64,000 nucleotides of DNA from an uncultured bacterium (GTDB lineage: Bacteria; Poribacteria; WGA-4E; WGA-3G): contig CAZZBB010000076.1 in assembly GCA_964652195.1 (NCBI GenBank), positions 16,228 through 80,227 of the forward strand, written 5' to 3'. The notes under the pieces were generated by a model. It saw only the letters and a program-made list of their open reading frames with translations. It did not search any database and was not told the origin of the DNA. A program made the translations under genes and the position numbers. Shown here in pieces: positions 21,794 to 55,433 of the stretch. How positions within the stretch are numbered: position 1 is the stretch's first letter; every line of letters starts with the position of its first letter.

Positions 21794-22825
21794 TTATACA
21801 TTTAATTCCTTCAAAACTGTAGTGGCTTTTATAGCCATATCAGATGTAGGATCACGTCTGACTATTCTATTTAATTGATATACTGCACGTTCATCTCCCT
21901 CCTCTGCTAATACTAATGCCTCCTCAAAACCCTTGTTAATATAGCTTAAATCTCTTGGAAATATTGTTAGGTCTAAATCTCTCCAATAGTACTTCAATTC
22001 ATCAGAATCCCATTTCTCATAAACATCATCCCATTTTAGATTGTTAAAAATATTCAAGTGTGGTTCAAGCATATGTTCTGCTATTGGATCATCAACTGCT
22101 TGATACCGGTTGTCGAGAGACACACGAAGCCGATCCTCTGATAAATTTGGAAGTGCCTTATGGATTGTTAATGCAGGGAAAATTAAAGTATCACCAATTT
22201 CATAGTTGGTTGTATGCCATTCACCTGATAACTCATCTGTATCAACACAGAGTCCACCTGCCCCCAGTGAAAAGTGGTGTTCCATCACACTCTTGACTTT
22301 ATGTGATCCGGGTAATACTGCCAAACCACCTAACTCAATTGGACAATCACCAACTGGTGCCCAACAGGTGTATGTCTGGAAATTACCTTGAAAATGTACA
22401 AAATCCTGATGTATCGGCGTTGTATGTTCAGTATATTTTGGATACCAAAGTCGTGCAATCTTCTGTGGGTGTGGTAATACCTCTTTACCTATGATTTTCT
22501 CCAGCATTTCAACGACTTCTAACCAATGACCTGACCGATGAAATACTTCCAATTTGTAAACCTCATGGTAAACATCAGTGTATTCTGGATCTCCCTCAGT
22601 ACACTGTGTTGAAATATCAGCAATTCCATCCATTGGATCTGTGTCTGGAATTAGCCAACCACTCTTCTGCATGGTTGAAAGCATTTCCATTCGTAAATCC
22701 AGCAACTTGTAAGGATCTTGCAACTTCTTGAAAAATAGATAACCTTCATCCGACATTCTTGAACGAAGCCTTTCTGGATTATCCATTATATCATTAGATA
22801 TGCGAAGTTCTCGTAATTCCTCCAT
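21794..22825 (-). CDS. Phytanoyl-CoA dioxygenase (PhyH) family oxygenase
   Basis: TTPIHQDF (HxD), TCWAPVGD, LPGSH, GDTLIFPALTIHKA, RVSLDNRY. Confidence 0.9.
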   Translation of the reverse strand: MEELRELRISNDIMDNPERLRSRMSDEGYLFFKKLQDPYKLLDLRMEMLSTMQKSGWLIPDTDPMDGIADISTQCTEGDPEYTDVYHEVYKLEVFHRSGHWLEVVEMLEKIIGKEVLPHPQKIARLWYPKYTEHTTPIHQDFVHFQGNFQTYTCWAPVGDCPIELGGLAVLPGSHKVKSVMEHHFSLGAGGLCVDTDELSGEWHTTNYEIGDTLIFPALTIHKALPNLSEDRLRVSLDNRYQAVDDPIAEHMLEPHLNIFNNLKWDDVYEKWDSDELKYYWRDLDLTIFPRDLSYINKGFEEALVLAEEGDERAVYQLNRIVRRDPTSDMAIKATTVLKELNV

Positions 22826-25294: not shown

Positions 25295-26575
25295 ATGGAA
25301 AAGCTACCGAACATTGTTTTTATACTTGCTGATGATCACGGTTATGGTGATATCTCAGCACATAATGGACCCTCAATTCAAACACCACATATTGATAGAA
25401 TCGCAGATGAAGGCATACGACTTACACAATTCTATGCAAACTCATCTGTCTGTTCACCAAGTCGCGCATCGCTTATGACGGGTCGCTATCCGGATAGAGT
25501 TGGTGTGCCGGGGGTAATTCGAACACACCCAGAAAACAATTGGGGATATTTTCGACAGGATGCTATCACACTCCCATCAATATTAAAACAGAAAGATTAC
25601 AAAACATCTCTAATTGGTAAATGGCATCTTGGACTTGAAGATGAGAATCACCCATGTAAAAGAGGATTTGATTATTTTCACGGCTTTCTCGGTGATATGA
25701 TGGATGACTATTACACACATCTTCGCCATCAGAATAACTATATGCGTCGTGATTTTGAAACAATTGACCCAAGAGGACACGCTACCGATCTATTCTCAGA
25801 TTGGAGTGTTGAGTTTATCCAAGAACAGACACAATCTACACAACCCTTCTTTCTATATCTCGCATATAATGCACCGCACACACCGATTCAACCGCCGGAT
25901 GATTGGGTTGATAGAGTGAAGGATCGTGAACCAGATATTTCAGAACAACGGGCAAAATATATCGCTCTTGTTGAACACATGGATGCAGGTATTGGACGGG
26001 TTCTTGATTCACTTGAAAAAAACGATCAACTTTCAAATACTCTTGTGATTTATACATCTGACAACGGGGGGCAGATGGGGGTTGGAGCACATAACGGACC
26101 ACTCCGTGGGGAGAAGGGGCAGATGTATGAAGGTGGTATACGGGTGCCTACTTGTGCCATGTGGAAAGGAAATATTCCTCAAGGACATGTCTCAGATCAA
26201 GTCAGTATGATAATGGATTTTTATCCTACTCTTTGTGAAATAACAGGGATACATATAAACCATGATATTGAGGGACAGTCAATTTTGAAAACATTGCAAG
26301 GCGGAAAACAGGATCTATCCGAAAGGCTACTCTACTGGATTCGAAGAGAGGGAGGACAACAGTTCTTAGGAGATTGTCAACATGCAGTTAGACGTGGTGA
26401 TTTAAAACTGCTGCATAACAGACCCTTTGAACCACTTGAACTTTACGACTTATCAAATGATCCATTTGAAGCAACAGATACTGCCAAAACGAATACAGAT
26501 CTATTTAAAGAGATGGGGAATCTTTTTCAACAAGAAATACAGAAATCAGGGAGCATTCCTTGGCAAAAGGGATAA
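25295..26575 (+). CDS. Sulfatase (arylsulfatase A-like)
   Basis: PNIVFILADD, formylglycine motif CSPSR followed by LMTGRY, GKWHLG, YNAPH, SDNG, YEGGIRVP. Confidence 0.95.
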   Translation: MEKLPNIVFILADDHGYGDISAHNGPSIQTPHIDRIADEGIRLTQFYANSSVCSPSRASLMTGRYPDRVGVPGVIRTHPENNWGYFRQDAITLPSILKQKDYKTSLIGKWHLGLEDENHPCKRGFDYFHGFLGDMMDDYYTHLRHQNNYMRRDFETIDPRGHATDLFSDWSVEFIQEQTQSTQPFFLYLAYNAPHTPIQPPDDWVDRVKDREPDISEQRAKYIALVEHMDAGIGRVLDSLEKNDQLSNTLVIYTSDNGGQMGVGAHNGPLRGEKGQMYEGGIRVPTCAMWKGNIPQGHVSDQVSMIMDFYPTLCEITGIHINHDIEGQSILKTLQGGKQDLSERLLYWIRREGGQQFLGDCQHAVRRGDLKLLHNRPFEPLELYDLSNDPFEATDTAKTNTDLFKEMGNLFQQEIQKSGSIPWQKG

Positions 26576-26726: not shown

Positions 26727-26761
26727 TAACGTTGGTGTATACTATGTATACACCAACGTTA
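26727..26761. promoter_or_regulatory. Perfect 16-bp inverted repeat upstream of the grpE-hsp70 promoter (operator or terminator)
   Basis: taacgttggtgtatac-tat-gtatacaccaacgtta, ending 11 nt before the -35 box. Confidence 0.6.
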
Positions 26762-26772
26762 TTTCGTTAACA

Positions 26773-26801
26773 TTGACATGCCGTAAAATCCGTTGTATAA
26801 T
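26773..26801 (+). promoter_or_regulatory. Consensus sigma70 promoter of the Hsp70/J-like array locus
   Basis: TTGACA (26773-26778), 17-nt spacer, TATAAT (26796-26801). Confidence 0.8.
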
Positions 26802-26865: not shown

Positions 26866-27582
26866 TTGAGCAGTGAAATGAATAACGATCTTGATGCAAA
26901 ATTAAAAAAAATCTTGGATAGTCAGACAAACTTAGATACGGAAAATCCTGATGACACAGTAGATACTGTTGGAGATACCCCAATGGAGGACATGGAATTA
27001 CATCAGATAAATACACTTACTGAGATTAACCAGTCTTTGACGGTATTACTCGAATTATTTGAAAAACACATATCTGGAAATCAGAATCAAGTCCAGATGT
27101 TTGATAAAATGTATGCCGAAATGAAGGACTATAAAGAGAGTTTTCTACTTGAAGTACTTCATAAACCGGTTATCCATAACTTAATTCAACTCTACGATAG
27201 TTTTATATCACTTGAATCTCAACTTACTAACCTTATTGATGAGAATAATGATAACACACTATTAAATGAGTTGAGGCAATATAGTAGTAATTTACAGAAT
27301 TTTCGTTTTGAACTTGAAGAAGTTTTATACCGCATGGATGTAACACCCTATCAGAATTCACCAGATACATTGGATAGGCAGTTACATAAGACACGGAAAG
27401 TTATATCTACAGACGATCCAAATATGGATCAGAAAGTAGCAGAAGTGCATAAAATCGGATTCTATTGGCGTGAGAAAGTGTTTCGTCCGGAAGATGTAAC
27501 CATTTATCGTTATATGGCCTCCACAGAAAAATCTGAAAATGGTAATACTAAACATTCTTCAGATAAACAAAGGGGAGATTAA
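26866..27582 (+). CDS. grpE: GrpE-like nucleotide exchange factor
   Basis: Acidic N-terminal tail, long coiled coil, and C-terminal beta domain ...DQKVAEVHKIGFYWREKVFRPEDVTIY; its stop directly abuts the Hsp70 ATG. Confidence 0.8.
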   Translation: MSSEMNNDLDAKLKKILDSQTNLDTENPDDTVDTVGDTPMEDMELHQINTLTEINQSLTVLLELFEKHISGNQNQVQMFDKMYAEMKDYKESFLLEVLHKPVIHNLIQLYDSFISLESQLTNLIDENNDNTLLNELRQYSSNLQNFRFELEEVLYRMDVTPYQNSPDTLDRQLHKTRKVISTDDPNMDQKVAEVHKIGFYWREKVFRPEDVTIYRYMASTEKSENGNTKHSSDKQRGD

Positions 27583-29178
27583 ATGGGTAAAGTTGTCGGA
27601 ATAGATTTAGGTACGACATTTTCTGCGATAGCACATATAAATGAGCATGGACAACCTGAAATTATCCCCAATTTGGAGAGTGACCGAATTACACCATCGG
27701 TCGTAATGTTTGAAGACAATCTTGTAACCGTTGGAAAAATAGCTAAGCAGAATGCCAGAGCTGTCCCTGAACAAATTGTTGAGTTTATCAAAAGGGAGAT
27801 GGGTAAATCAAGAACGAATTTCTTCCGTACATTCGATGAAAAAGACTATTCCCCTGAAGAACTATCTGCGCTCATTATGAGGAAACTGAAACAAGATGCT
27901 GAGATCTATCTGAATGAAGAGGTGACTGATGCTGTAATCACTGTTCCTGCGTATTTTCACGACGCAGAAAGAGAAGCTACGCGAAATGCAGGGAAAATTG
28001 CTGGTTTTAATGTGCTTCAAGTCCTAAACGAACCGACCGCAGCTGCACTCGCTTATGGAATCGATCAACTTGGTAATAACCAAAATGTATTTGTATTTGA
28101 CCTTGGTGGTGGAACATTTGATGTGACAATTATGCAGGTCTCAGAATCTGAAATAAAAATGTTAGCAACAAATGGGGACCATCGGTTAGGGGGCAAAGAT
28201 TGGGACGACAAAATCATTACCTATGTTGCTGAGATGTTTGAGATAGAACATGGAGAGAATCCTCTGGATGATCTTCATACATATCAAGACCTTCAACTGG
28301 ATGCAATTGGAGCCAAAGAATCCTTATCTCAACGACAAAGAGCATTAATTGTATGTGGATATAACGGGAAGACAACCCGTGTTGAATTACTACGCGAGAA
28401 ATTTGAAGAACTTACGACAGATCTACTTGAAAGATGTCGAACTTTGTGTGAGTTAGTATTATCAGAGGCAGAAATGTCTTGGACAGATATTGACAAGATC
28501 TTATTGGTTGGGGGATCGACACGGATGCCTATGGTACAGGAAATGATCCGGTCAATAAGCGGTAAAGAGATTAATCCACATGAAGTTAATCCTGATGAGG
28601 TCGTCGCATTAGGAGCGGCTATTCAAGGAACTCTTCGTCAAATTACAGACGATACTGTTGAAACACCGGAAATGCCTGAAGCTGTTATAGAACGGTTTAT
28701 TGGACCGGATGGAGTACCAAAAGTCACTGTAACGGACGGTGCTACACATAATCTGGGTCTTGTTGTCCTCAATTCACAACGCGATTATATTATCCATGTT
28801 ATGATCCCAAAAATGACTGCTGTTCCGTGTGAAATTGCTGATCAATTCTTGACTGTTGACGAAAACCAACCAACTGTGCTAATTGAGGTAGTGCAAGGAC
28901 TTGAACAGGATCAACTTAGGGATCAAATACCATTTTTTGATGAATATAAGCTGGGAGAATGCACACTTGAATTACCTAACGGATTACCACAAGGATCTCC
29001 AATTGAGGTAAACTATAAATATAATTTAGACCAAAATCTCGAGGTAACAGCAAAATCATTGACAGATGACGGTCCTACAGCAGTTTTTGATATCTTTTCA
29101 ATAATTGATAGACCTACACTTAATGAAGAAGAAGTTTCCAAAGCACAAACAGATCTGCAAGAACTGACAGTTGAATAA
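27583..29178 (+). CDS. Non-canonical Hsp70 (DnaK-like) protein lacking the C-terminal lid
   Basis: GIDLGTTFS, TVPAYF, NEPTAAALAYG, VFDLGGGTFD, LVGGSTRMP, NPDEVVALGAAIQ; beta substrate-binding domain present; only 531 aa. Confidence 0.93.
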   Translation: MGKVVGIDLGTTFSAIAHINEHGQPEIIPNLESDRITPSVVMFEDNLVTVGKIAKQNARAVPEQIVEFIKREMGKSRTNFFRTFDEKDYSPEELSALIMRKLKQDAEIYLNEEVTDAVITVPAYFHDAEREATRNAGKIAGFNVLQVLNEPTAAALAYGIDQLGNNQNVFVFDLGGGTFDVTIMQVSESEIKMLATNGDHRLGGKDWDDKIITYVAEMFEIEHGENPLDDLHTYQDLQLDAIGAKESLSQRQRALIVCGYNGKTTRVELLREKFEELTTDLLERCRTLCELVLSEAEMSWTDIDKILLVGGSTRMPMVQEMIRSISGKEINPHEVNPDEVVALGAAIQGTLRQITDDTVETPEMPEAVIERFIGPDGVPKVTVTDGATHNLGLVVLNSQRDYIIHVMIPKMTAVPCEIADQFLTVDENQPTVLIEVVQGLEQDQLRDQIPFFDEYKLGECTLELPNGLPQGSPIEVNYKYNLDQNLEVTAKSLTDDGPTAVFDIFSIIDRPTLNEEEVSKAQTDLQELTVE

Positions 29179-29253
29179 ATTCCTACACAAATTTACATTT
29201 TCTTAGATAATATCATTAGCATTTCTACCTAAGGTTAACAACAGGATTTACGA

Positions 29254-30648
29254 ATGTCTGATCGAGATGAATTTATATCCTTTGTAACAGATTTTAAAGT
29301 TGTCTCACCTACTATTTCGGACGAACAACGTAAAGGTCTTTTACGGAGAGCTGTACATCAACACGGTCTTACAGTTGAAGATGCTAATGGAATATTGGAT
29401 AATACGGGTCTTGTAATTGGTGAACAACAGGTAAATTATTTTGAAGTATTAGGTATACTGCTTGAAGAGACTAAAAATAAGACCGAATCAGAGATTTCAG
29501 ATCATGTTGTTTCCATACACAAGAGACTATATAGTAAATCCTTGAATTCAGGGGGTCGTCCACGGCATGATGGAAGGTCAGAAGAACAGTGGCGAAGATT
29601 ATTGAATCAAGCTCGTGATGTCCTTATTGATCCCATTAAGAGGCAAGGATATATTGATGAGCTAAATACTTACGATAATGAAGATACTTACGATAATGAA
29701 GAGTTTCATGATGATATATCAATTAAGCCAACCACTTCTATAAGCAATTTATCATTTAATGTTGATGAAAGGGTTATACCAGCACACAAAAAAGTTGTAT
29801 TTACTGTAGTATTTTCACCTGATGGCACATGTGTTGCCAGTGGTAGTGCTGACAAATCAATATGTATCTGGGATATTCAGGCTGAAAAGCAGAAACATAT
29901 TCTTAATGGTCATAATGATACAGTAACATCTGTTAGGTATTCACCAGACGGTAAAACCATAGCAAGCGGGAGTTTTGACGGAACAGTATGTTTATGGAAT
30001 GCTAAATCCGGAGAGTTGAAAAAACGATTAACTGGACAAAAAGATAAGATTAGTTCCGTGGCTTATTCACCTGATGGAAAAACAATAGCAAGTGGAAGTT
30101 ATAATGGAACTATTCAATTATACAATGCTGAGACTGGTGAACCAAAAATCCTCCTCAAAGGACATAGAAATTGGGTTAGTTCAGTTGTATACTCACCTGA
30201 TGGGAAAACAGTTGCATGTGCAAGTTATGACGGGAAGGTCTATTTGTGGAATACTGAAACAGGCGTAAATATACATGTCCTAACAGGTCATAAATTTAGT
30301 GTTATCGCAGTAACCTATTCACCTAATTCTGATACAATCATAAGTACAGATCTGCAAGGAACAATTCTTGCCTGGAATGCAGTTTCTGGCGAACCAAGAA
30401 TCCTACCTACGGGTTTTATGTCCTGGATTAGTTCAGTAGCATATTCCCCGGATGCAACTATTCTCACTTGTGGTAGTTTTCATGGATCAATCACTTTATG
30501 GAATACAGATACATGGGAGGAATTAAAAACTATTAAGGGGCATACGTCAACTGTAAAAGCACTATCCTACTCTCCAGATGGAAGGATTCTGGCAAGCTGC
30601 GGTGGAGATGGTAATGTACGTCTTTGGAGTTCATCATTATACGAATAA
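29254..30648 (+). CDS. J-like N-terminal module fused to WD40 beta-propeller (array member 1)
   Basis: N-terminal ...VNYFEVLG...GGRPRHDGRSEEQWRRLLNQARDVLIDPIKR; seven WD40 repeats (GH...V.SV.YSPDG...ASGS.DG.V.LW). Confidence 0.9.
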   Translation: MSDRDEFISFVTDFKVVSPTISDEQRKGLLRRAVHQHGLTVEDANGILDNTGLVIGEQQVNYFEVLGILLEETKNKTESEISDHVVSIHKRLYSKSLNSGGRPRHDGRSEEQWRRLLNQARDVLIDPIKRQGYIDELNTYDNEDTYDNEEFHDDISIKPTTSISNLSFNVDERVIPAHKKVVFTVVFSPDGTCVASGSADKSICIWDIQAEKQKHILNGHNDTVTSVRYSPDGKTIASGSFDGTVCLWNAKSGELKKRLTGQKDKISSVAYSPDGKTIASGSYNGTIQLYNAETGEPKILLKGHRNWVSSVVYSPDGKTVACASYDGKVYLWNTETGVNIHVLTGHKFSVIAVTYSPNSDTIISTDLQGTILAWNAVSGEPRILPTGFMSWISSVAYSPDATILTCGSFHGSITLWNTDTWEELKTIKGHTSTVKALSYSPDGRILASCGGDGNVRLWSSSLYE

Positions 30649-30734
30649 TACCTACTCAAGCTGCCGATCATTAATGATAGAATACTACAACTGAATTATA
30701 CAGGTTCATATAGAATTTCAAATTGGTTTAATTA

Positions 30735-31985
30735 ATGTCCAAGCGCGATGAATTCTTTGCTTTTATCAATACTCTCAAAGATGCATCACCTACGATTACT
30801 GACGAACAGCGTAAAGGTTTTCTCAGGCTTGCAGTTGAAAAATATGGTTTAACTGTTGATGAAGCAACATCTATATTCAATGCATCGGGTATAATAATTG
30901 GTGAAATAGTTGATCTATTTGAAATCTTTGGATTAACTGGCATAGAGATTAAGAGATATAATCAATCTGAAATTGTCGATCGCGTTGAGTCAATCCATAG
31001 TAAACTATATAGTGAATCTTTAAAGTCCGGGGGTCGTCCGCGTCCAGATGGTAGGTCAGAGGAACAGTGGCGAAGATTGTTAAATCAAGCACGAGACACA
31101 CTAACTGACCCGAAAAAACGTCACGAATATCTTGCAACACTTCAATATAAAGAACCATTAACTGAAACAATTTCAGGAACTACAAGCCTTGAGAATATGT
31201 CACTTATTCCTGAAGGTGAGTTTGAAATGGGTAGCAACGATGACGAGACTTTTGATGATGAACATCCGGTTCATACCGTTTTTCTAAACGAATTCTATAT
31301 TGACCAATATCCTGTAACCAATGCACAATACAAGGCATTCCTTGATGCGAATCCACAGTGGAATAAGCATGAAATCCCAAAAAAGTATTGTGATGTTGAC
31401 TATCTTAAGCATTGGCGTAGGAGTAGTTTTCCAAGTGGGGAAGCAGATTATCCTATTGTCAATGTAAGTTGGTATGCTGCTATGGCTTATGCTCAATGGC
31501 GAGGTAAACGTCTTCCCACTGAAGCTGAATGGGAAAAAGCTGCACGTGGTGGTCTTGCCGGCAAACAATACCCATATGGTAATTCATTAGATTCTACTCA
31601 AGCGAATTATGACTGGAATGAGGGACATGCCACACCCGTTGCCAAATATCCTTCTAATGGATATGAACTTTATGACATGTGTGGCAATGTTTGGGAATGG
31701 TGTCTTGATAGATATGAGAAACATTATTATAGAAACTCACCGACTCGTAACCCTATTGCTGGTGATGATACTATTGACTGGTTGAATGACAACTTCTTAG
31801 ATATTAAATCCAATCGTGTATTACGTGGTGGTTCATGGCGGATACCTGCCTCATTAGTGAGAACAGCAAAACGAAATGCAGAATCTCCCATGTTTTCACT
31901 GAATGTGATTGGGTTTCGTTGTGTAATTCAAGCTTTACCGACAGATAATTCTCATTTCCCTCCTACCGTAGGATATGCTGCCTAA
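30735..31985 (+). CDS. J-like module plus FGE-sulfatase/SUMF1-fold domain (array member 2)
   Basis: Shared N-terminal module; [65 protein letters not shown]. Confidence 0.9.
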   Translation: MSKRDEFFAFINTLKDASPTITDEQRKGFLRLAVEKYGLTVDEATSIFNASGIIIGEIVDLFEIFGLTGIEIKRYNQSEIVDRVESIHSKLYSESLKSGGRPRPDGRSEEQWRRLLNQARDTLTDPKKRHEYLATLQYKEPLTETISGTTSLENMSLIPEGEFEMGSNDDETFDDEHPVHTVFLNEFYIDQYPVTNAQYKAFLDANPQWNKHEIPKKYCDVDYLKHWRRSSFPSGEADYPIVNVSWYAAMAYAQWRGKRLPTEAEWEKAARGGLAGKQYPYGNSLDSTQANYDWNEGHATPVAKYPSNGYELYDMCGNVWEWCLDRYEKHYYRNSPTRNPIAGDDTIDWLNDNFLDIKSNRVLRGGSWRIPASLVRTAKRNAESPMFSLNVIGFRCVIQALPTDNSHFPPTVGYAA

Positions 31986-32007
31986 CCTTCTCTATCGAAA
32001 TTAGACT

Positions 32008-33393
32008 ATGCTTAAACGTAATGAGTATATAGACTTTATAAATGAATTTAAAACTGTATCTCCAACTATCACAGATGAACAAAGGATTGGTCTTCTGCGA
32101 CGAGGTGTTCAACAACATGGTCTATCAATTTCTGAGGCAGAGAACATAATTCTATCATCAGGATTAATTATCGGTGAACAGATAGATTATTTTCAAATAT
32201 TAGGATTATCCATAGAAGATATACAGAATCAAAACGAGGACTTAATTACAACAGAAGTTGATACGATACACAGAAAACTATATAACGCCTCCTTAAAAGC
32301 AGGAGGTCGTATACGATCAGATGGTAGGACTGAGGAACAGTGGCGTATCATACTAAATGAAGCACGGGATACTCTCAAGAATGTTGAAAAACGAAAATCT
32401 CATATTGAAATACTACAAACCGATGTTCTACCCCCGATTGAAATCCTATCTGAAGATACTCCTATACAAGAAACTGAAACAACACAAGAAACAATTCCAA
32501 CACAACCGACAGAACAGTCAAGTGTGTTGCCATCAGTAGAAGTTCTTCCTGAAGATGAATCTATTCAAAGAACTGATACTCTTGAAGAATCCATTTCATC
32601 ACAACCCGTAGTAGAAGATGGTATGGCACTCATTCCTGCCGGAGAATTTCAAATGGGGAGTAACGATATTGAGGCTTACAATGACGAAAAGCCTATACAT
32701 ACTGTATACATAGATACATTCTATATTGATCAATATCCTGTCACGAATGTAGAATATAAAGAGTTTATTGATGCCAATCCTGAATGGCATAAACCCAAAA
32801 AATGGTATGATAATACTGGAAATATTGATGGTATTCACAAGAAATATCATGACGGTGATTACCTAAAGACTTGGAAAAGAAACAACTTTCCAAAAAATGA
32901 AGTTCATCATCCTGTAACTTGGGTGAGTTGGTATGCTGCAATGGCTTACGCACAATGGAAAGGTAAACGACTACCAACCGAAGCTGAATGGGAAAAAGCT
33001 GCACGAGGTGGTTTGACAGGACAAAAATATCCATGGGGAAATACCATAAGCCTGAATCGTCTAAACTACGATCTATATATCAGTAATACAACCGAAGTAG
33101 GTCAATATCCTGAAAATGGTTATGGTATTTATGATATGGCGGGAAATGTATTTGAATGGTGTATAGATGTATGGAATGAAAACTACTATATTAATTCTCC
33201 ATACAATAATCCTGTCGCTGATGGATATTTAGCAGATATTTTAGCTGATTTCACAAGTGTAATGACACCGAGAGTGGTGCGTGGTGGATCTTCTGTAAGT
33301 ACTCCGAGAAACACACGGGTTTCATATCGACATAGAAATACACCTAAATTGACATGTTTTAGTATTGGATTCCGTTGTGTAAGATCTAAATAA
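32008..33393 (+). CDS. J-like module plus FGE-sulfatase-fold domain (array member 3)
   Basis: Same architecture; long E/T/Q/P-rich linker. Confidence 0.9.
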   Translation: MLKRNEYIDFINEFKTVSPTITDEQRIGLLRRGVQQHGLSISEAENIILSSGLIIGEQIDYFQILGLSIEDIQNQNEDLITTEVDTIHRKLYNASLKAGGRIRSDGRTEEQWRIILNEARDTLKNVEKRKSHIEILQTDVLPPIEILSEDTPIQETETTQETIPTQPTEQSSVLPSVEVLPEDESIQRTDTLEESISSQPVVEDGMALIPAGEFQMGSNDIEAYNDEKPIHTVYIDTFYIDQYPVTNVEYKEFIDANPEWHKPKKWYDNTGNIDGIHKKYHDGDYLKTWKRNNFPKNEVHHPVTWVSWYAAMAYAQWKGKRLPTEAEWEKAARGGLTGQKYPWGNTISLNRLNYDLYISNTTEVGQYPENGYGIYDMAGNVFEWCIDVWNENYYINSPYNNPVADGYLADILADFTSVMTPRVVRGGSSVSTPRNTRVSYRHRNTPKLTCFSIGFRCVRSK

Positions 33394-33422
33394 CCTACAT
33401 TTTTTATATAATTATTCTATCT

Positions 33423-34595
33423 ATGGCTGAAAATAAAGAATTCATCGCATTTGTAAATAGATTAAAAACACTATCACCAACCATAACCGAAGAGCAGCGT
33501 ATTGGTCTTCTGCGGCAAGGTGTGCAAGAATATAGCCTCACTACAGATGAAGCGGATAATATTCTGAAAACATCAGGATTAATTGTTGGAGAACAAGATA
33601 GTTATTTTGATGTCTTAGGAATCTCAATTGAAGAACTAGAAAATCTTAGTGACGCTGATATCCTTGCACATGTTGAATCTTCCCACGCCAAACTTTACCG
33701 AGAATCATTGAATGCAGGGGGTCGTCCAAGAACCGATGGTAGGACAGAAGAAGAGTGGCGGACACTTCTAAATCAAGCTCGAGATACATTAATAGATTCT
33801 GATATACGACGATTACACTATACAAATTTACAACATGCAGAAACTTCTTTAGATGATGGGATAACACATCAAAGTTCTGAAAATATGGTGTTAATCCCAG
33901 AAGGAGAGTTTCAGAATGAGTATATTGATGCATTCTATATAGACTCATATCCGGTTACGAATCTACAGTACAAGTTATTCCTGGATGCAAACCGTCAGTG
34001 GAAGATTCCTAAACTAATTGATGTTTTTAGGATGGGGAAATTTAGAGATGGAGACTATTTGAAGACTTGGGTAAGGAACAAATTTCCACCTGGGAAAGAA
34101 GATCATCCTGTAACTTGGGTGAGTTGGTATGCAGCAATGGCATACGCTCAATGGTTAGGTAAAAGATTACCCACAGAAGCAGAATGGGAAATAGCGGCAC
34201 GTGGAGGTTTAATAGAGAAAAAATTTCCATGGGGGAATTCGGTTGATCATTCTTTAGCAAATTATAATAAATACATAGGTGAGACAACTCCTATTGGTAA
34301 ATATCCTGCTAACAATTATGATGTATATGATATGGTTGGGAATGTATCTGAGTGGTGTTTAGATGAATGGGATAGAGACGTAAATCAATCTTCCTTTCGA
34401 ATAAATCCAGTTGAAGAAGAGAGTATTGAGGATATAATAGAGAATTATTCCGAATCGAGAAAGAAACGTGTATTAAAAGGTAGTTCATGGTATTCTTCCA
34501 CTAAAGACCTACAGATATCCTACAGATACGGATTAGCACCAAGGAAAACAGTAAGCGTAGTAGGATTTCGCTGTGTGAAACCAATTAATAAGTAA
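33423..34595 (+). CDS. J-like module plus FGE-sulfatase-fold domain (array member 4)
   Basis: Same architecture; lacks the MGS...HxV hairpin found in all siblings. Confidence 0.88.
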   Translation: MAENKEFIAFVNRLKTLSPTITEEQRIGLLRQGVQEYSLTTDEADNILKTSGLIVGEQDSYFDVLGISIEELENLSDADILAHVESSHAKLYRESLNAGGRPRTDGRTEEEWRTLLNQARDTLIDSDIRRLHYTNLQHAETSLDDGITHQSSENMVLIPEGEFQNEYIDAFYIDSYPVTNLQYKLFLDANRQWKIPKLIDVFRMGKFRDGDYLKTWVRNKFPPGKEDHPVTWVSWYAAMAYAQWLGKRLPTEAEWEIAARGGLIEKKFPWGNSVDHSLANYNKYIGETTPIGKYPANNYDVYDMVGNVSEWCLDEWDRDVNQSSFRINPVEEESIEDIIENYSESRKKRVLKGSSWYSSTKDLQISYRYGLAPRKTVSVVGFRCVKPINK

Positions 34596-34637
34596 ACCGA
34601 ATATTTCTCTTGTTAAAGACCTATTTGAGGATCAAGC

Positions 34638-35930
34638 ATGCGTGAATATGAAGAATTTATCTCTGTCATTAATACACTCAAAGTACTATCAACGATCATC
34701 ACTGAAGCACAACGTATTGGTCTTTTGCAACAAGGTGTGCAAGAATTTGGTCTCACTACAGATGAAGCGGATAATATTCTGAATACATCAGGATTAGTTG
34801 TTGGAGAACAAGATAGTTATTTTGATGTCTTAGGAATATCAATTGAAGAACTTGAAAAACTCAGTGAAGCTGATATCCTTGCACATGTTGAATCTGTCCA
34901 CGACAAACTTTACCGAACATCTTTGAATGCAGGGGGTCGTCCGCGGTCTGATGGCAGATCAGAAGTAGAGTGGCGAAACCTTTTGAATCAAGCAAAAGAT
35001 ACAATAACAGATCCCCTAAAAAGAAGTGAATATATTTCCATTCTACAACAGGTAAAAATACAGGATTTCAGTGCTGAACCATCACAGGAATTGGATTCAT
35101 CCGATGCAAACACAAATAGACCTCATGCCTTAAGTAATACATTTGTACCAGATGGTATTGATGTGCCTGATGACATGGTATATATACCAGCAGGTGAATT
35201 TCAAATGGGGAGTGAACATGCAGATGCTGAGGAGGATGAACAGCCTATTCACACAGTTTTTGTTAATGCATTTCTTATGGATAAAAATCCTGTGACAAAT
35301 AGAGAATTTAGAGAATTTCTACATACTAATCCTGAGTGGCAGAAACCTGATCATCTTAATTATCATATCATTTCGAATTTTCATGATGGTTCATATTTGA
35401 AGGATTGGCAGATGAATATGTATCCACCTGGAAAACGTGATCATCCAGTGACGCAGGTGAGTTGGTTTGCTGCGATGGCGTATGCCAGATCAGTAGGTAA
35501 GCGTCTGCCGACTGAAGCAGAATGGGAAAGAGCAGCACGCGGCGGCTTGGATGGTAAACACTATTCTTGGAGTAATGTTGAAGATTTCGTTAATGCAGAT
35601 GAGTATTTAAATGCTGAAGATACTTTACCAATCGGTCTTACACCTGCCAATAACTATGGACTTTATGATATGTGTGGCAATGTATGGGAATGGTGTCTTG
35701 ATGCATATAATGAGGATTTCTATAACGAGGCACCATAGAATAACCCATTTTATGGACCTAATAGCAAAGAATGGGTAGTAGAAAACTTTAGCCGTATAAC
35801 AATCGAACGTGTATTACGCGGTGGTCCTTGGGGTTTTGATGCTTTAGGGGCACGAGTTTCACAACGACTCAGTAGTGCCCCAACCGATACTTTACCAACT
35901 TACAGTTTTCGTTGTATAAAGTATATTTGA
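34638..35930 (+). pseudogene. J-like module plus FGE-sulfatase-fold domain (array member 5) with one in-frame TAG
   Basis: ORF stops at TAG 35736-35738, but the same frame continues NNPFYGPNSKEWVVENFSRITIERVLRGGPW...YSFRCIKYI to TGA at 35930. Confidence 0.85.
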
Positions 35931-35995
35931 TGGGAATGGTCTTATCAATTGAATTATTTCATAGAATACTGAAAATATAAATCGACTTATTAAAA

Positions 35996-37276
35996 ATGGC
36001 AAAACGTGAAGAATTCATTCAGCTTATCAACACTTTTAAAGCGGTGTCAGCTACAATAACAAACAATCAAAGACGAGGTTTGTTGCAGCAAGCTGTACAG
36101 ATCTATGATCTCTCTATTGAAGAAGGTATAGAGATATTGGATTCATTAGGAATAGTTGTTGGGGATGAGGTAAATTATTTCGAGATATTAGGACTATCCA
36201 TTGAGGAAATACAAGGCAAGGATGACCAGACGGTTACTGATATTGTTAAAATAGCACATGATGACTTGTATAAAGTCTCCTTAACTGCTGGAGGACGGGT
36301 CAGATCAGATGGAAGGACTGAAGACCAGTGGCGAATATTACTGAATCAAGCGCGGAATATTCTGGGTGAAAAAGAAAAAAGAAACGAATACATCTCTGCT
36401 CTTCTTCAAGAAGAGTCTAAAGAATTTTCAACTCCGAATACACCTACGATTCCGAGTACCGAACCAAATTCTATTGAAATTGTATCTGAACCGACCTCTC
36501 ACATAATAACAGATCCTGACGATATAGAAATACCATCTGAAATGGTATTGATCCCTTCAGGAGTATTTATTATAGGATCTCAAAGTAAAGACATAAACGG
36601 TAGTGATTTACCACTACATAATGTGTACTTACACTCATTCCTGATTGATAAATATCCTGTAACTAATTCTGAATTCCGTGTTTTTCTCACTGAGAACGAA
36701 CAATGGCAGAAGAAATACATATCCGAAAAATATCACAATGGTAAATACCTTAGATCTTGGAACGGGAATAACTATCCAAAAAATAAAGACAATGATCCGG
36801 TTGTCGATATAAGTTGGTATGCTGCAATGGCTTATGCTCAATGGATAGAGAAACGACTTCCTACAGATATTGAATGGGAAAAAGCTGCACGTGGAGGGTT
36901 AACTGAAAAAACGTATCCCTGGGGCGATGATATTACTAACGACCTGGCGAATTACGGAATGTTTGTCGGGAATACAACCCCTGTTGGAAACTACCCTCCA
37001 AATGAGTATGGTGCGTTTGATATGGTTGGCAATGTATGGGAATGGTGTCTTAATCATTATGAACATATTGAAGCATTTAGTAAACCAAGTATATCTGTTG
37101 AACAGATGAGTAATATCTTAGATTCCTATTTAGATGTCGAAAGCAATCGTGTGTTACGTGGAGGTTCATGGGCAAGTAGTGAACGAGCTCTTTCGGTTGC
37201 ATATAGAGGTAGTGCTGCTCCTAGTTGTACATATTACAGTTACGGATTTCGATGTGTTAAGGATATTCATAGATAA
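35996..37276 (+). CDS. J-like module plus FGE-sulfatase-fold domain (array member 6)
   Basis: Same architecture; GGRVRSDGR loop; RVLRGGSW...YGFRCV. Confidence 0.9.
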   Translation: MAKREEFIQLINTFKAVSATITNNQRRGLLQQAVQIYDLSIEEGIEILDSLGIVVGDEVNYFEILGLSIEEIQGKDDQTVTDIVKIAHDDLYKVSLTAGGRVRSDGRTEDQWRILLNQARNILGEKEKRNEYISALLQEESKEFSTPNTPTIPSTEPNSIEIVSEPTSHIITDPDDIEIPSEMVLIPSGVFIIGSQSKDINGSDLPLHNVYLHSFLIDKYPVTNSEFRVFLTENEQWQKKYISEKYHNGKYLRSWNGNNYPKNKDNDPVVDISWYAAMAYAQWIEKRLPTDIEWEKAARGGLTEKTYPWGDDITNDLANYGMFVGNTTPVGNYPPNEYGAFDMVGNVWEWCLNHYEHIEAFSKPSISVEQMSNILDSYLDVESNRVLRGGSWASSERALSVAYRGSAAPSCTYYSYGFRCVKDIHR

Positions 37277-37336
37277 AATATCTTCAACTCTAATGTATAT
37301 CTAATTTTTAGAGTTCATCTCATTGGTACTGTATTA

Positions 37337-38713
37337 ATGGCAAAACGTGAAGAATTTATAGATGCAATCAATTTGTTTAGGTCTGCCTCACAATCCATAT
37401 CGGTAGAACAACGGATAGGACTTTTACAACAAGCTGTACAAGAGTATGGACTATCAATAAAAGAAGCTGATGAGATAATCAAAGAAACAGGGCTAATAGT
37501 CGGCGGGACTATTAATTACTTTAGGGTCTTAGGTTTGTCCAATCATGAATTTGAAAATCTAAATGAAACCACTATTACATCAATTATAGATGAAGCACAT
37601 AGAAAACATTATACAGAATCATTAAGAGCTGGGGGACTTCCTCGTCCTGACGGGAGAACCCAAGAACAGTGGCGAATCATCCTAAATCATGCACGATATA
37701 CTTTAATAGATCCTCATAAACGCGAAGAATATCTATCACAATTATTGAGAGAAGAAGATTCATCTGATAGTTTCATTAATGATGTTTCCAACAATAATAC
37801 CACTGATACAGAAAACTATAATCCGAATCTTGCCCAGTCAATCTCAACTGATAATAAAGAACATTTAGCGCATGCACCTTCGATTGTAGAAAATAAACAA
37901 GTATTTATTCATCCTGATGTACCTGCAAATATGGCATATATCCCTGCTGGTGACTTCAGGATGGGGAGTAATGATGAAAAAGTTGGAAACATAGAAAAAC
38001 CTGCCCATGTTGTGTATGTTGACGAGTTTATTATAGACAAGTATTTAGTTACCAATGCAGAATATAAAGAGTTTGTAGATGCTAACCCTCAATGGGCAAA
38101 GCCAACAAAATGGTATCACTTTGAGAAACAGAAGAAATCCTATATACATGAAAAATACCATGATGGAGATTATCTTAAGCATTGGAATGAGAATACATAC
38201 CCTGATAGTAAAGCAGAACATCCAGTGACATGGGTGAGTTGGTATGCAGCAATGGCGTATGCTGAATGGGTGGGTAAACGTCTCCCAACAGAAGCAGAAT
38301 GGGAAAAAGCTGCGCGCGGTGGAATAACTGGACAGAATTATCCTTGGGGAGAATCAATTGATTATACTAAGGCTAATTATAATAGCTATATTGGTGAAAC
38401 AACTTCTGTAGGTGAGTATCCAGCAAACGGATATGGAATTCATGATATGATAGGAAATGTTTGGGAATGGTGTCTTGACGAGTATCAGGAAAATTACTAT
38501 GCAAGTTCAGAACGCAAGAACCCAATTTGTGGTGTAAATACGGTTGAATCAATAGAATATAGTGATATGGATAATAGACATGCACGGGTAATGCGAGGAG
38601 GTTCTTGGCTTGATTCCTCTCAATTCGTCCGTTCTGCATCCCGTTACAGGAACACCCCTATACGTACTCTCGCAAGAATTGGGTTTCGTTGTGTAAAAAT
38701 CGTTCCTTCATAA
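37337..38713 (+). CDS. J-like module plus FGE-sulfatase-fold domain (array member 7)
   Basis: Same architecture; GGLPRPDGR loop. Confidence 0.9.
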   Translation: MAKREEFIDAINLFRSASQSISVEQRIGLLQQAVQEYGLSIKEADEIIKETGLIVGGTINYFRVLGLSNHEFENLNETTITSIIDEAHRKHYTESLRAGGLPRPDGRTQEQWRIILNHARYTLIDPHKREEYLSQLLREEDSSDSFINDVSNNNTTDTENYNPNLAQSISTDNKEHLAHAPSIVENKQVFIHPDVPANMAYIPAGDFRMGSNDEKVGNIEKPAHVVYVDEFIIDKYLVTNAEYKEFVDANPQWAKPTKWYHFEKQKKSYIHEKYHDGDYLKHWNENTYPDSKAEHPVTWVSWYAAMAYAEWVGKRLPTEAEWEKAARGGITGQNYPWGESIDYTKANYNSYIGETTSVGEYPANGYGIHDMIGNVWEWCLDEYQENYYASSERKNPICGVNTVESIEYSDMDNRHARVMRGGSWLDSSQFVRSASRYRNTPIRTLARIGFRCVKIVPS

Positions 38714-38769
38714 TCGAAGCATTATGATTTTTTCTACGACAATCTACACTAATAAAATGGTGGTTTGTT

Positions 38770-40155
38770 TTGGCTAATCGTAACGAATTTATCTCAATTG
38801 TCAACACACTTATATCCCTATCAAAATCAATTACAGATGACCAGTATAAAAGTCTTCTACAACAAGCTGTTCAGGAATATGACCTAACTCTTGATGATGC
38901 ATCGGAGATATTGACGACATATGGATTGGTTGTTGGTGAAAGTGTTAACTATTTTGAGGTATTAGGTCTATCCATTGATGAACTTACCCATCAAGATGAA
39001 ACTGAGATTGCTTCACATATTGAGATTGCACATAAGAGACATTATACAGAGTCTTTACAGGCAGGTGGACTTCCGCGATCAGATGGTAGAACACAAGAAC
39101 AGTGGCGGACATTGCTAAATGATGCATTTTATACGCTAATAGATTCCCAGAAACGAACTGAATATATAGACTCCTTAACGAAGAATAGATCCCAAGATGA
39201 AGGACAAGAAAATATAGGAGATGACCCAAAATCAGAAGAGCAAGTAATTACTACTCAGAAATCAACATCTATAAGTTTCTCTGTTCCAGAAAACATGAAT
39301 CATATCACCTCTGGAGAATTTCAGATGGGTAATCAAAACGAAAATGCAAATGATCGTGAAATTCCTGTACATTCTGTCTTTGTCGATGAGTTTTATATGG
39401 ATAAATATCCTGTGACAAATGCACAGTATAAGAGATTTGTTGATGCTAATCCGGTATGGAGTAAACCAGCAAGCAGTTTGGTTTGGCATAGAAAAAACAA
39501 ACGAATTATTACAGGTAGGATGACCCGACAAGATTACTTAAAGAATTGGAATGGAAACACTTTTCCACAAGAAATGGAAGACCATCCAGTTACTTATATT
39601 AATTGGTATGCTGCAATGGCGTATGCAAAATGGATCGGTAAACGTTTACCAACAGAAGCTGAATGGGAAAAAGCTGCACGTGGGGGGATAATAGGTCAGA
39701 ATTATCCATGGGGAAACACTTTGGATGCCGACAGAGCAAATTGTAATAATACTATTGGTGAAACCACCTCTGTTGGAAAATTTCCTCCGAATAACTACGG
39801 TTTGTATGATATGGTTGGAAATGTCTGGGAATGGTGTCTGGATGAATATCAGACTGACTACTATTCTCATTCACCGAATGAAAATCCAATTGCGGGATAT
39901 GACACTAAAGAGAAATTGTATGCTTTATGTTCTTATTATGGGAATATTGATACTGAACGTGTGTTACGAGGGGGCACTCTATTTTATTCATCTGAACCCA
40001 TTAATATCCACGTTAGATGGGGAGGTGATCCATCACTTACAAATTACTATTCTTCAGATTCATCAAAGATAGTTGCACGATATTCTTCAGGACTCATGGT
40101 AAACATTGGGTTCAGATGTGTTTGGGATGTGAATATGCAGAAACAATCTAAATAG
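38770..40155 (+). CDS. J-like module plus FGE-sulfatase-fold domain (array member 8)
   Basis: Same architecture; 18-aa insertion in the C-terminal variable segment. Confidence 0.9.
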   Translation: MANRNEFISIVNTLISLSKSITDDQYKSLLQQAVQEYDLTLDDASEILTTYGLVVGESVNYFEVLGLSIDELTHQDETEIASHIEIAHKRHYTESLQAGGLPRSDGRTQEQWRTLLNDAFYTLIDSQKRTEYIDSLTKNRSQDEGQENIGDDPKSEEQVITTQKSTSISFSVPENMNHITSGEFQMGNQNENANDREIPVHSVFVDEFYMDKYPVTNAQYKRFVDANPVWSKPASSLVWHRKNKRIITGRMTRQDYLKNWNGNTFPQEMEDHPVTYINWYAAMAYAKWIGKRLPTEAEWEKAARGGIIGQNYPWGNTLDADRANCNNTIGETTSVGKFPPNNYGLYDMVGNVWEWCLDEYQTDYYSHSPNENPIAGYDTKEKLYALCSYYGNIDTERVLRGGTLFYSSEPINIHVRWGGDPSLTNYYSSDSSKIVARYSSGLMVNIGFRCVWDVNMQKQSK

Positions 40156-40280
40156 GAGGTTTCTACTTTGATAGTAATTGGTAATGTGAGTTCATGATAA
40201 GAAATACTATACCATTTTAAATTGATAGATTTAAATTAGGACTTTCTTGTTACGAGGATTATCATATACATATTATGAGT

Positions 40281-40415
40281 CCCGGGGAATGCAATAAGGC
40301 ATTCATACCCGACGAATGCCCGGTGAATGACCTAATGTCATTCATACCTGGTGAATGCTATATAGCATTCATACCGTTGATTCCTTGATTCCTTGATTTG
40401 GTAGGGACGAAATGT
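40281..40415. repeat. Composite palindromic/octamer repeat element
   Basis: Three GAATG-loop-CATTCATACC hairpin units, TTGATTCC repeats, then CGAAATGT; same layout at 55251. Confidence 0.8.
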
Positions 40416-40504
40416 TTATAGAAAACACCAAAATTCGTGAAAACAACAAAAACATTTAGTTAACTGGCACAAGTCGTTATAGTCATCTATATAATTAATA
40501 ACTG

Positions 40505-41980
40505 GTGGTACGCATGTCAAATCGTGATGAGTTTATTGCTGTCGTAAATACACTCAAAACACTCTCTCATACAATTACAGATGAACAGAATAGGAGTTTA
40601 TTACAGCAGGCAGTCCACGATCATGGTCTCTCAGTAGAAGGCGCGATGGAGATAATCAATTCATTAGGGATAACTGTAGGGGAAAGGATAAACTACTTTG
40701 AGGTATTGGGGTTTTCTATTGAAGATTTAACTTCGCAAGATGAATCTTCTATTACTAAAAATCTTGAAAATGCTCACATAAAATACTACACCGAATCATT
40801 ACAAGCAGGTGGGTTACCCCGACAGGATGGTAGGACTCAAGAACAGTGGCGTACAATTCTAAATCAAGCCTATGATACATTGAAAGATCCAATAAAACGC
40901 AAGGAACATATTGAAACCGTACAAACTGAGTCATCTCATGAAGAAAACACATCAACTATAGTAACCGAAATATCTGAGCCTAAAGATACCTCATTACAAG
41001 TTGCAGTTCCAGAAGAAATGGTCTTAATTCCATCTGGGGATTTTCAGATGGGTAATAGTGATGAAAATGCAAATCTACGGGAAACACCAGTACATATTGT
41101 CGGAACGGATGCATTTTATATTGACAAATATCCAGTTACAAATGAACAATATAAAGCGTTTATAGATGCAAACCCATTATGGCGGAAACCATCTGATGGG
41201 ATGTGGTTAGATCTTCAAAAATGGTATGAGAAATATAAGGCGTTTATAGATGCAAACCCATTATGGCGCCCATTATGGCGGAAACCATCTGATGGAACGT
41301 GGTTAGATCTTCAAAAATGGTATGAGAAAGGGGGCGATCGGTATAATTACATATATGATAAATATCATGATGGAGAGTATCTGAGACATTGGACACACAA
41401 TAAGTTCCCTCTTGAGACAGCTGATCATCCTGTTACGAATGTAAGTTGGTATGCAGCAATGGCGTATGCACAATGGGTTGGCAAACGTCTGCCAACAGAA
41501 GCTGAGTGGGAAAAAGCTGCGCGTGGAGGGTTAAATGGTCAGAAATATCCTTGGGGTGATTTCATGAATTCAAGCATGGCAAATTGTGGTGAGAATGCAG
41601 ATAAGACCACACCTATAGGTAAGTATCCTGCAAACAATTTCGGTATTTTTGATATGGTTGGGAATATATGGGAATGGTGCCTTGATGAATATGTAATTGA
41701 TTATTATACTTCCTCTACATCTCTGAATCCTATCGCAGGTGTTGACTCAAAGAAGGACTTGGATAATTTAATTCGTAATTTTAGAGTGGTTGATAGTGAT
41801 CGTGTTTTGCGAGGTGGCACATCCTTTATTTCATCAGAACCTATCCATACTTCCGCACGATGGGGTGGAACACCTATTCTTACTGAATTTACTGCCTCCT
41901 ATATGACAAAGTATTTAGAAGCTTTTTCAATGACAATCGCTGCAAACATTGGCTTCAGATGTGTATGGGATACAACGTAA
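40505..41980 (+). CDS. J-like module plus FGE-sulfatase-fold domain (array member 9)
   Basis: Same architecture; internal 84-bp tandem duplication; 18-aa C-terminal insertion like member 8. Confidence 0.9.
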
Positions 41981-55250: not shown

Positions 55251-55433
55251 CCAGGGGAATGCCATAAGGCATTCATACCCGGGGAATGACTAAATGTCAT
55301 TCATACCCGGGGAATGACTAAATGTCATTCATACCCGGGGAATGACTAAATGTCATTCATACCGTTGATTCCTTGATTCCTTGATTCCTTGATTCCTTGA
55401 TTCCTTGACTCCTTGATTCGCGGAGCGAAATGT
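55251..55433. repeat. Composite tandem palindrome plus octamer microsatellite element
   Basis: Four abutting 27-28 bp units GGGGAATG(AC/CC)-loop-(GT/GG)CATTCATACCC, seven TTGATTCC-type octamers (55365-55420), then CGAAATGT. Confidence 0.9.

Follow-up and report, generated by a model that had tools for sequence, protein, structure and literature searches.

In the DnaK-DnaJ-GrpE machine, D35 of the J-domain HPD motif hydrogen-bonds R167 and Q378 of the Hsp70, H33 contacts linker residue L391 and K48 pairs with D477, and the R167H substitution suppresses DnaJ D35N (PMC8215388; PMC7289447). The HPD motif is treated as a defining and indispensable feature of J-domains, and because large J-protein surveys discard sequences without it (PMC10410713), HPD-less families such as the one considered here are invisible to them. 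Diverged Hsp70s with a shortened lid that have co-evolved with dedicated, adjacently encoded J-proteins are known from the HscA-HscB and HscC-DjlB/DjlC pairs; DjlB and DjlC read HPE for HPD (PMC10410713; PMC8215388), while in HscA and HscC neither the signature motif for GrpE nor the residues that interact with it are found, so that they are thought not to use GrpE (PMC8215388). A J fold without HPD, put to structural or regulatory use rather than, or besides, triggering the ATPase, is found in Pam16/Tim16, ARC6/Ftn2, DNAJB13 and plant CJD1, and further 'DnaK derivatives' of complex bacteria are listed as uncharacterised (PMC13580251). Here, we describe a locus in a window of 64,000 nucleotides (the whole stretch of DNA that was analysed; contig CAZZBB010000076.1) from an uncultured member of the Poribacteria, in which a GrpE-like gene and an Hsp70 gene directly precede nine paralogs (W1-W9) whose products begin with an HPD-less J-domain derivative. 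The cognate Hsp70 has lost exactly the arginine contacted by HPD yet keeps its catalytic machinery. On the combined evidence the nine proteins are probably, though by no means certainly, J-derived adaptors that work with this private Hsp70/GrpE machine and carry swappable binding modules.

The locus shares with DnaK-DnaJ-GrpE the three-component gene set, the J hairpin fold, the Hsp70 catalytic residues, much of the allosteric network and a GrpE homologue, but differs in lacking HPD, in a longer loop between helices II and III, in an Hsp70 with Q167, a VTVTD linker, a lysine for D477 and almost no lid, in the absence of a G/F region, zinc finger or client-binding C-terminal domain, and in having 2 to at least 10 adaptor paralogs per operon. 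Unlike the HscA-HscB and HscC pairs, it has a GrpE-like gene in the operon, and HPD is lost entirely instead of being altered to HPE. The HPD-less J folds listed above, for their part, are not encoded with a private R167-less Hsp70, have no PRxDG loop and do not form arrays of paralogs with swappable modules. The MoxR-vWA ternary systems (PMC7159879) are similar in combining a chaperone NTPase, a co-chaperone and variable effectors, in the small helical N-domain common to the effectors and in their inactive enzyme domains. Here, however, the NTPase is an Hsp70 with GrpE and not a MoxR or GTPase protein, the window contains no vWA domain, peptidase or diversity-generating retroelement (DGR), and none of the core components carries a matching N-domain. 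In the survey of Kaur, Burroughs, Iyer and Aravind (2020), Hsp70 and GrpE occur only inside GTPase-centred systems and with canonical DnaJ (PMC7159879). The C-termini of W2-W9 are clear members of the FGE-sulfatase (C-type-lectin) fold, as are SUMF1/FGE and the DGR variable protein TvpA, but they lack the catalytic cysteines and have no reverse transcriptase or template repeat nearby. No description of a GrpE-Hsp70-J-like triad was found in the searchable literature, which is incomplete.

From 26866 to 41980 every gene lies on the forward strand, in the order GrpE-like, Hsp70 and the nine paralogs; the GrpE-like stop abuts the Hsp70 start, and the spacers between the paralogs are 22-86 bp long except for two longer ones, of 257 bp and 361 bp, an arrangement that argues for a single operon. 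The sequence-only reading, which concerned the paralogs, overlooked this upstream context, although the dedicated GrpE-Hsp70 pair is decisive for how they are to be understood. The GrpE-like protein scores 34.7 bits against a Pfam cutoff of 25.8 and covers profile positions 12-163 of 165, but falls far under the NCBIfam equivalog cutoffs; by these profiles it is a diverged member of the GrpE family.

Residues 58-140 of the common module form a true but strongly diverged J-domain derivative, as the sequence-only reading had proposed for the C-terminal two thirds of the module, and profile searches, structure prediction and Pfam agree on this point. A profile built from the nine window sequences retrieved only J-proteins from the PDB, all of them weakly (HscB, E 0.019, Jac1 and Zuotin). 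With a profile of 43 family members 57 chains were matched at E<=1, nearly all of them J-domains, headed by the mitoribosomal J-protein mL77 (3e-6), Thermus DnaJ2 (2.7e-5) and E. coli DnaJ (5e-5), and hmmsearch against E. coli DnaJ gave 24.7 bits with a full-length alignment. The AlphaFold model (pLDDT 79.7) presents a four-helix fold in which helices 78-98 and 110-125 form the antiparallel II-III hairpin, flanked by helices 62-74 and 127-143. When this model was compared with the PDB by Foldseek, 19 of the 20 top matches were J-domain entries, with probabilities of 0.75-1.0 except for P58(IPK) at 0.35 and target TM-scores of about 0.45-0.7 for isolated J-domains; thus the J helical hairpin, and not an unrelated fold, was recovered. 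Pfam DnaJ (PF00226) is matched by 15 of the 43 members (best E 5e-7), any other family by at most two.

When the family profile is aligned with mL77, Thermus DnaJ2 and E. coli DnaJ, HPD comes to lie on L97-x98-(A/S)99 (W1 numbering throughout), at the end of predicted helix II, a register in which the family A-(H/Y)-x-K-L matches DnaJ A-Y-(K/R)-(K/R)-L and H33-P34-D35 fall on these three residues. MAFFT and a weak HscB hidden Markov model (HMM) alignment place HPD on Y93-x-x instead, and another weak HMM alignment one residue earlier. At neither candidate position are H, P or D among the commonest residues of 134 family segments, and no invariant HPD is present at the start of the loop. The sequence-only reading had seen a conserved motif in the HPD region and had assigned its RxD to the HPD position; the motif does sit in the II-III loop, as GG(R/L)PRxDGR in a loop about five residues longer than that of DnaJ, but R104-x-D106 never aligned with HPD, and RxD as its equivalent is rejected on the three profile alignments and MAFFT. 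Conservation of the loop residues across the same 134 segments is good (P 71%, R 84%, D 87%, G 81%, W 80%). Thus HPD has been lost and a family-specific loop motif (L-x-A-G-G-x-P-R-x-D-G-R) has arisen beside its former position, ahead of a highly conserved helix III (QWRxxLNxA). In the MAFFT alignment helix II of the module is also without the basic residues R19, R22 and K23 of DnaJ.

The Hsp70 of the window is 36% identical to E. coli DnaK (BLASTP) and is scored by NCBIfam closest to DnaK, under every cutoff, and not as HscC. It has the actin-like nucleotide-binding domain and the β-type substrate-binding domain of an Hsp70, and in DnaK numbering it keeps D8, K70, E171, D194, T199, D201, Q378, D393, K414, P419, D481 and L484, while K166-R167 is replaced by L-Q, with its Q146 at the position of R167. 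The linker reads VTVTD for DnaK VLLLD (VTVTD, VKVID or IRVID in relatives) and is preceded by an insertion of about 20 residues. The acidic D208-D211 loop carries a four-residue deletion that removes D211; elsewhere E206 is replaced by Q, and E217 and D477 are both lysines. The α-helical lid is nearly absent, the protein ending about 25 residues past the β-basket (531 versus 638 residues in DnaK). These features extend to the related loci, where 51 of 53 Hsp70 open reading frames (ORFs) have Q at R167 and all 53 have K70, E171, D194 and D201 intact; E206 is Q, N, K or R, the D208-D211 loop is deleted and E217 is mostly K or Q. The two exceptions are one and the same Hsp70-vWA fusion, found in two loci. 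The eroded acidic patch of the nucleotide-binding domain (NBD) matches the loss of basic residues in helix II of the module, and the loss of HPD together with R167Q would be in keeping with co-evolution of a private interface.

An Hsp70-vWA fusion (723 aa, R167 kept) lies just upstream of a GrpE-Hsp70(Q167)-J-like triad in L004 (2582-4753), L005 (2626-4797) and L066 (1-954), and in L064 FHA and vWA genes precede the triad. In L066 a further protein (P0093, 8001-9611), on a long-read contig of 1x coverage, joins an Hsp70 NBD of the Q167 type to an N domain and a J-like domain in place of the substrate-binding domain (SBD), which could reflect either a real fusion or misassembly.

The association of these genes is not confined to the window. 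An HMMER scan of 1.84 billion representative proteins returned only 130 relatives, the named ones all from Candidatus Poribacteria, and a pattern scan of 185,579 species genomes gave 58 loci, all in metagenome-assembled genomes of Poribacteria save two labelled 'uncultured bacterium'. An Hsp70 gene lies upstream of the N-J array in 40 of the 58, mostly with a detectable GrpE-like gene ahead of it, and arrays comprise from 2 to at least 10 N-J-FGE or N-J-WD40 genes per locus. Among distant relatives with the J-like domain only, the order GrpE, Hsp70 (521-537 aa), J-like-X was found in all six contexts examined, X being ANK, HEAT, a transmembrane segment with PG_binding and PEGA, or PG_binding with SH3 and FGE. 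One of these loci, L004, encodes an Hsp70 that shares 71-77% identity with those of Poribacteria, so that the system may for the most part be restricted to this phylum. No relatives were found on viral contigs in IMG/VR, on which ground a phage origin was rejected, and PADLOC returned only generic ANK, HEAT and WD repeat matches, so that a known defence system was likewise set aside.

Conservation of the module is concentrated in the loop and its surroundings. MAFFT alignment of the first 150 residues of the nine proteins gives 28 invariant columns, including H89, Y93, S96, L97, G100, G101, R104, D106, G107, R108, W113, R114, L117, N118, A120 and R130. In the six-frame translation of the window GG[RL][PIV]RxDGR has exactly nine matches, one per gene at the same position, and none outside the nine genes. 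All the motifs reported by the sequence-only reading were recovered in the alignment: (Y/L)F(E/Q/D/R)(V/I)(L/F)G, H...Y..SL, the GG[RL][PIV]RxDGR loop and (S/T)xxxWRxxLNxA...L are present in all nine, the two members with R-P-D are W2 and W7, and the preceding segment EF..., S.xI(T/S)..Q...L was found as described; of the terminal DPxKRxxY, (K/I)Rxx(Y/H) is present but the 'DP' before it varies, with NV, DS and EK as other readings. In a set of 197 N-J-FGE proteins drawn from many Poribacteria genomes, the least variable stretches of the module are LY..SL.GG (0.94 bits per column), RPRxDGR... (0.77) and QWR..LN.AR (0.59), the remainder lying mostly at 1.2-2.0 bits per column bar one N-domain block at 0.95. 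Because this loop and helix III block is the least variable part, the conservation of the module exceeds that expected from shared descent.

The module consists of two separable domains, since separate HMMs recognize N-J, J alone, J-N, J-N-N, N-N and N-J-J arrangements among 173 relatives. The N domain (residues 1-57), modelled as a three-helix bundle (pLDDT 90), is mobile, occurring before J, after J, doubled or not at all, and stands ahead of WD40, FGE, ANK and other modules. Foldseek of this confident model gave a best E of 1.3 and only generic three-helix bundles. The sole PDB profile matches of the N domain are transcription activator-like (TAL) effector repeats, which share the motif Q..GLT..(E/Q)...I; helices 2-3 (EQRKGLLrrAvQeYGLTveEAeqIL..sG; 29254-29424 and the eight paralogs) resemble the TAL-effector repeat junction (ETVQRLLPVLCQAHGLTPDQVVAIASNxG). 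A TAL-repeat assignment was rejected, the summed E of 1.8e-19 arising from 23 weak repeats of which the best single one among the alignments shown has an E of 21, and Foldseek giving no TALE match; as single repeats are not significant, the likeness is probably a convergent helix-capping motif. The suggestion that the N-terminal helices oligomerise or dock like effector-associated domains (EADs) also finds no support in its homotypic form: a small helical N-terminus is present, but neither N nor J recurs on the GrpE-like protein or the Hsp70, where an EAD-type pair would call for a copy of N, or in the remaining ORFs of the window. In eight relatives outside the window (P0068, P0071, P0076, P0077, P0110, P0133, P0141 and P0161) a recurrent domain of the type IFKFPNGDEATSIxQLAxLMEKNxxEAxxALYxGYLEQSLGxAGE, without a Pfam match, lies between the J-like domain and ANK or FGE modules.

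The C-termini of W2-W9 match FGE-sulfatase (PF03781) with E-values of 1e-50 to 1e-63 and have the true FGEs of S. coelicolor and T. curvata as their best PDB relatives, with TvpA also among the matches. The segment bearing the FGE catalytic cysteines, YLCHDSYCNRYR (YLCHDSYC), nevertheless reads WRIPASL---VR in W2, and the C-x4-C pair, catalytic and copper-binding, that follows RGGS is found neither in W2-W9 nor in any of 207 Poribacteria N-J-FGE proteins. These domains are thus predicted not to be enzymes of the FGE kind, the catalytic site being dead by this comparison. Among 197 proteins the former active-site region is the most variable stretch of the domain and coincides with the DGR variable region, with a tip variability of 2.1-2.8 bits versus 3.35 bits for the unstructured linker.

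In the mechanism that we favour, the nine paralogs would be the adaptor, co-chaperone-like parts of a private Hsp70 machine encoded directly upstream, itself composed of a GrpE-like exchange factor and a nearly lidless Hsp70 with intact catalytic residues. We infer that the J-like hairpin still docks at the junction of NBD, linker and SBD-β of the cognate Hsp70 only and may affect its ATPase. The complementary losses of HPD and R167 would insulate the pair from the housekeeping DnaK/DnaJ, the HPD-R167 contact having been exchanged for another. Since the D393/D481/Q378 network is retained and R104, D106 and R108 of the loop are invariant, the replacement may act in trans, a detail of mechanism in which our confidence is much lower. 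The variable C-terminal modules, in the window one WD40 propeller and eight dead FGE/C-type-lectin-fold domains and elsewhere ANK, HEAT, TPR or periplasmic peptidoglycan (PG)-binding domains, would bring targets to the Hsp70 or hold the Hsp70 at its targets. The system would thus be a J/Hsp70/GrpE set with rewired coupling, in which an HPD-less lineage is tied by gene order to an Hsp70 and a GrpE of its own. As such it offers a natural experiment on J-Hsp70 rewiring and on the insulation of parallel Hsp70 networks, gives one class of 'DnaK derivatives' a concrete partner and a working hypothesis, and extends that hypothesis to a large unexplained paralog family (dead FGE, WD40, ANK) of the Poribacteria, a major uncultivated phylum of sponge symbionts.

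Several observations weigh against an adaptor role. J-like domains without HPD, Pam16/Tim16 among them, are not known to stimulate Hsp70. The register of HPD is ambiguous within one helical turn, and the nine window copies lie below the Pfam DnaJ threshold (2 of 9 matched, E>=0.034), a shortfall that probably explains their lack of annotation as J-proteins. In 18 of the 58 loci no Hsp70 occurs within the 10 kb fetched; some of these are mid-array fragments and others may be unlinked arrays. Gene neighbourhood, moreover, indicates linkage without direction, so that the paralogs could be clients rather than co-chaperones. Finally, since a change of R167 in DnaK and Ssq1 uncouples the domains and leaves J stimulation ineffective (PMC7289447), the R167Q Hsp70 might be J-independent and the J-like domain a mere tether or relic.

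Among the alternatives, we consider it unlikely that the locus is an Hsp70-centred counterpart of the ternary conflict (immune-like) systems, in which FGE, WD40, ANK or HEAT sensors or neutralisers bind invaders and the J-like domain couples binding to the Hsp70/GrpE switch. The variation of the arrays in size between genomes and strains, a pseudogene and internal rearrangements, as well as a C-terminal repertoire (FGS, WD40, ANK, HEAT, TPR) in which FGS is always C-terminal, as in MoxR-vWA effectors (PMC7159879), speak for such a system. So do the coincidence of the most variable FGE-like stretch with the DGR variable region, the TvpA match and, in the neighbourhoods of relatives, the Hsp70-vWA fusion, genes for FHA and vWA proteins, or genes for HicAB and PIN. 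The window, however, holds no toxin, nuclease, protease effector, reverse transcriptase or DGR template among its housekeeping and catabolic neighbours, and the database searches gave only generic repeats in PADLOC and no phage-borne copies. The variability of the FGE-like tip, well under that of the linker, is not of the hypervariable DGR kind, and the eukaryote-like repeat proteins of sponge symbionts typically show paralog expansion as well.

A further alternative, which seems to us quite unlikely, makes the J-like domain a degenerate relic or tether without stimulating activity. The R167Q Hsp70 would then cycle alone with GrpE, and the paralogs, as large repeat or lectin proteins prone to aggregation and in need of folding help, would be obligate clients of this Hsp70 or its structural partners. 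This reading would account for the absence of HPD from all members and for erosion on both sides, of the basic residues of helix II and of the NBD acidic patch, and it accords with the raised basal rate and loss of effective J stimulation that R167 substitutions cause in DnaK and Ssq1 (PMC7289447). A relic, on the other hand, would not form the best-conserved part of the module in 197 proteins and alongside several kinds of C-terminus, nor would it keep its PRxDG loop motif in 81-87% of 134 diverse members, and the Hsp70 retains the allosteric residues D393, K414, P419, D481 and L484. A combined proposal, in which a reversed arrangement would take over from the contact between the HPD aspartate and R167, with R104/D106/R108 acting in trans on D393/D481/Q378 of an R167Q Hsp70 fired only by its private adaptors while diversified arrays direct the Hsp70 against invading or foreign proteins, as an analogue of MoxR-vWA, is doubtful to a similar degree. 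A real FGE fused to a J-domain, with the Hsp70 holding nascent sulfatases unfolded during the conversion of Cys to formylglycine, is essentially excluded and in our estimate highly improbable, for in spite of the strong Pfam FGE-sulfatase scores, the true FGEs among the best PDB relatives, the sulfatase-rich Poribacteria and a sulfatase gene upstream here and in L001, the catalytic cysteines are absent from W2 and from all 207 homologues, a hairpin and promoter-like site part the sulfatase gene from the operon, and the same J-like/Hsp70/GrpE triad elsewhere carries WD40, ANK, HEAT or PG-binding modules.

The nine forward-strand ORFs that begin with the common module of about 140 residues span 29254-41980 (Table 1). 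For W9 the ATG at 40514 is most likely the start. In W5 an in-frame TAG (35736-35738) interrupts the FGE-like domain, whose remaining 64 codons (...RVLRGGPW...SFRCIKYI) stay in frame; W5 is probably a pseudogene or the product of a sequencing or assembly error, with read-through as another option. W9 contains a tandem duplication of about 90 nt inside its FGE-like domain, the copies being 93-97% identical. In contigs of run X13, from a related strain (identity about 96%), position 29500 is joined directly to 31004, and 34777 to 35996, so that the WD40 paralog body and the W5 body are absent there. Contigs of related strains skip one or another paralog, which points to an array of varying copy number, seemingly through recombination between the conserved N-J modules.

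Table 1. Features of the GrpE-Hsp70-paralog locus and its upstream flank, in window coordinates.
Feature	Position	Strand	Description	Loop motif	Loop position
Sulfatase gene	25295-26575		upstream of operon; same place in syntenic locus L001		
Terminator-like hairpin	26727-26761	+	16-bp stem; consensus scan		
Sigma-70-like promoter	26773-26801	+	perfect TTGACA-17-TATAAT; consensus scan		
GrpE-like	26866-27582	+	nucleotide exchange factor, 238 aa; Pfam GrpE E 1.8e-8		
Hsp70	27583-29178	+	531 aa; Pfam HSP70 E 5e-122		
W1	29254-30648	+	N (aa 1-57), J-like (aa 58-140), seven-blade WD40 propeller	GGRPRHDGR	29551-29577
W2	30735-31985	+	N, J-like, FGE-sulfatase-like without catalytic cysteines	GGRPRPDGR	31029-31055
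W3	32008-33393	+	N, J-like, 65-aa linker, FGE-like	GGRIRSDGR	32302-32328
W4	33423-34595	+	N, J-like, FGE-like minus 16 aa of first hairpin	GGRPRTDGR	33717-33743
W5	34638-35738	+	N, J-like, FGE-like; up to in-frame TAG, frame open to 35930	GGRPRSDGR	34932-34958
W6	35996-37276	+	N, J-like, FGE-like	GGRVRSDGR	36290-36316
W7	37337-38713	+	N, J-like, FGE-like	GGLPRPDGR	37631-37657
W8	38770-40155	+	TTG start; N, J-like, FGE-like with C-terminal insertion	GGLPRSDGR	39064-39090
W9	40514-41980	+	N, J-like, FGE-like; internal tandem duplication 41142-41329	GGLPRQDGR	40808-40834

The hairpin and the promoter-like site (26727-26801), both of them consensus matches only, likely mark the start of the operon and set it apart from the upstream sulfatase gene. 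The other neighbours in the window are ordinary chromosomal genes, encoding TPR and PhyH proteins, a GH95 enzyme, a symporter, CTP synthase and a penicillin-binding protein (PBP). Within 12 kb on the reverse strand lie two CBM9 + DUF5916 proteins (10811-13012 and 19598-21583) and two PhyH-family dioxygenases (14947-15684 and 21794-22825), pairs that are typical of the paralog-rich, carbohydrate-degrading gene content of Poribacteria. Sequence of the window is present in sponge metagenomes and sponge genome runs. The 361-bp spacer that separates W8 from W9 is filled (40281-40398) by palindromic units in tandem, each about 28 nt long (e.g. CCGGGGAATGACTAAATGTCATTCATAC) and followed by (GATTCCTT)n; the units appear again 15 kb further downstream, at 55251-55402. 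The region 40025-40625 is covered at about 100x the flank depth by contigs of sponge-derived runs, and the repeat looks like a high-copy element, of the repetitive extragenic palindrome (REP) or miniature inverted-repeat transposable element (MITE) type, of this genome or of co-resident ones.

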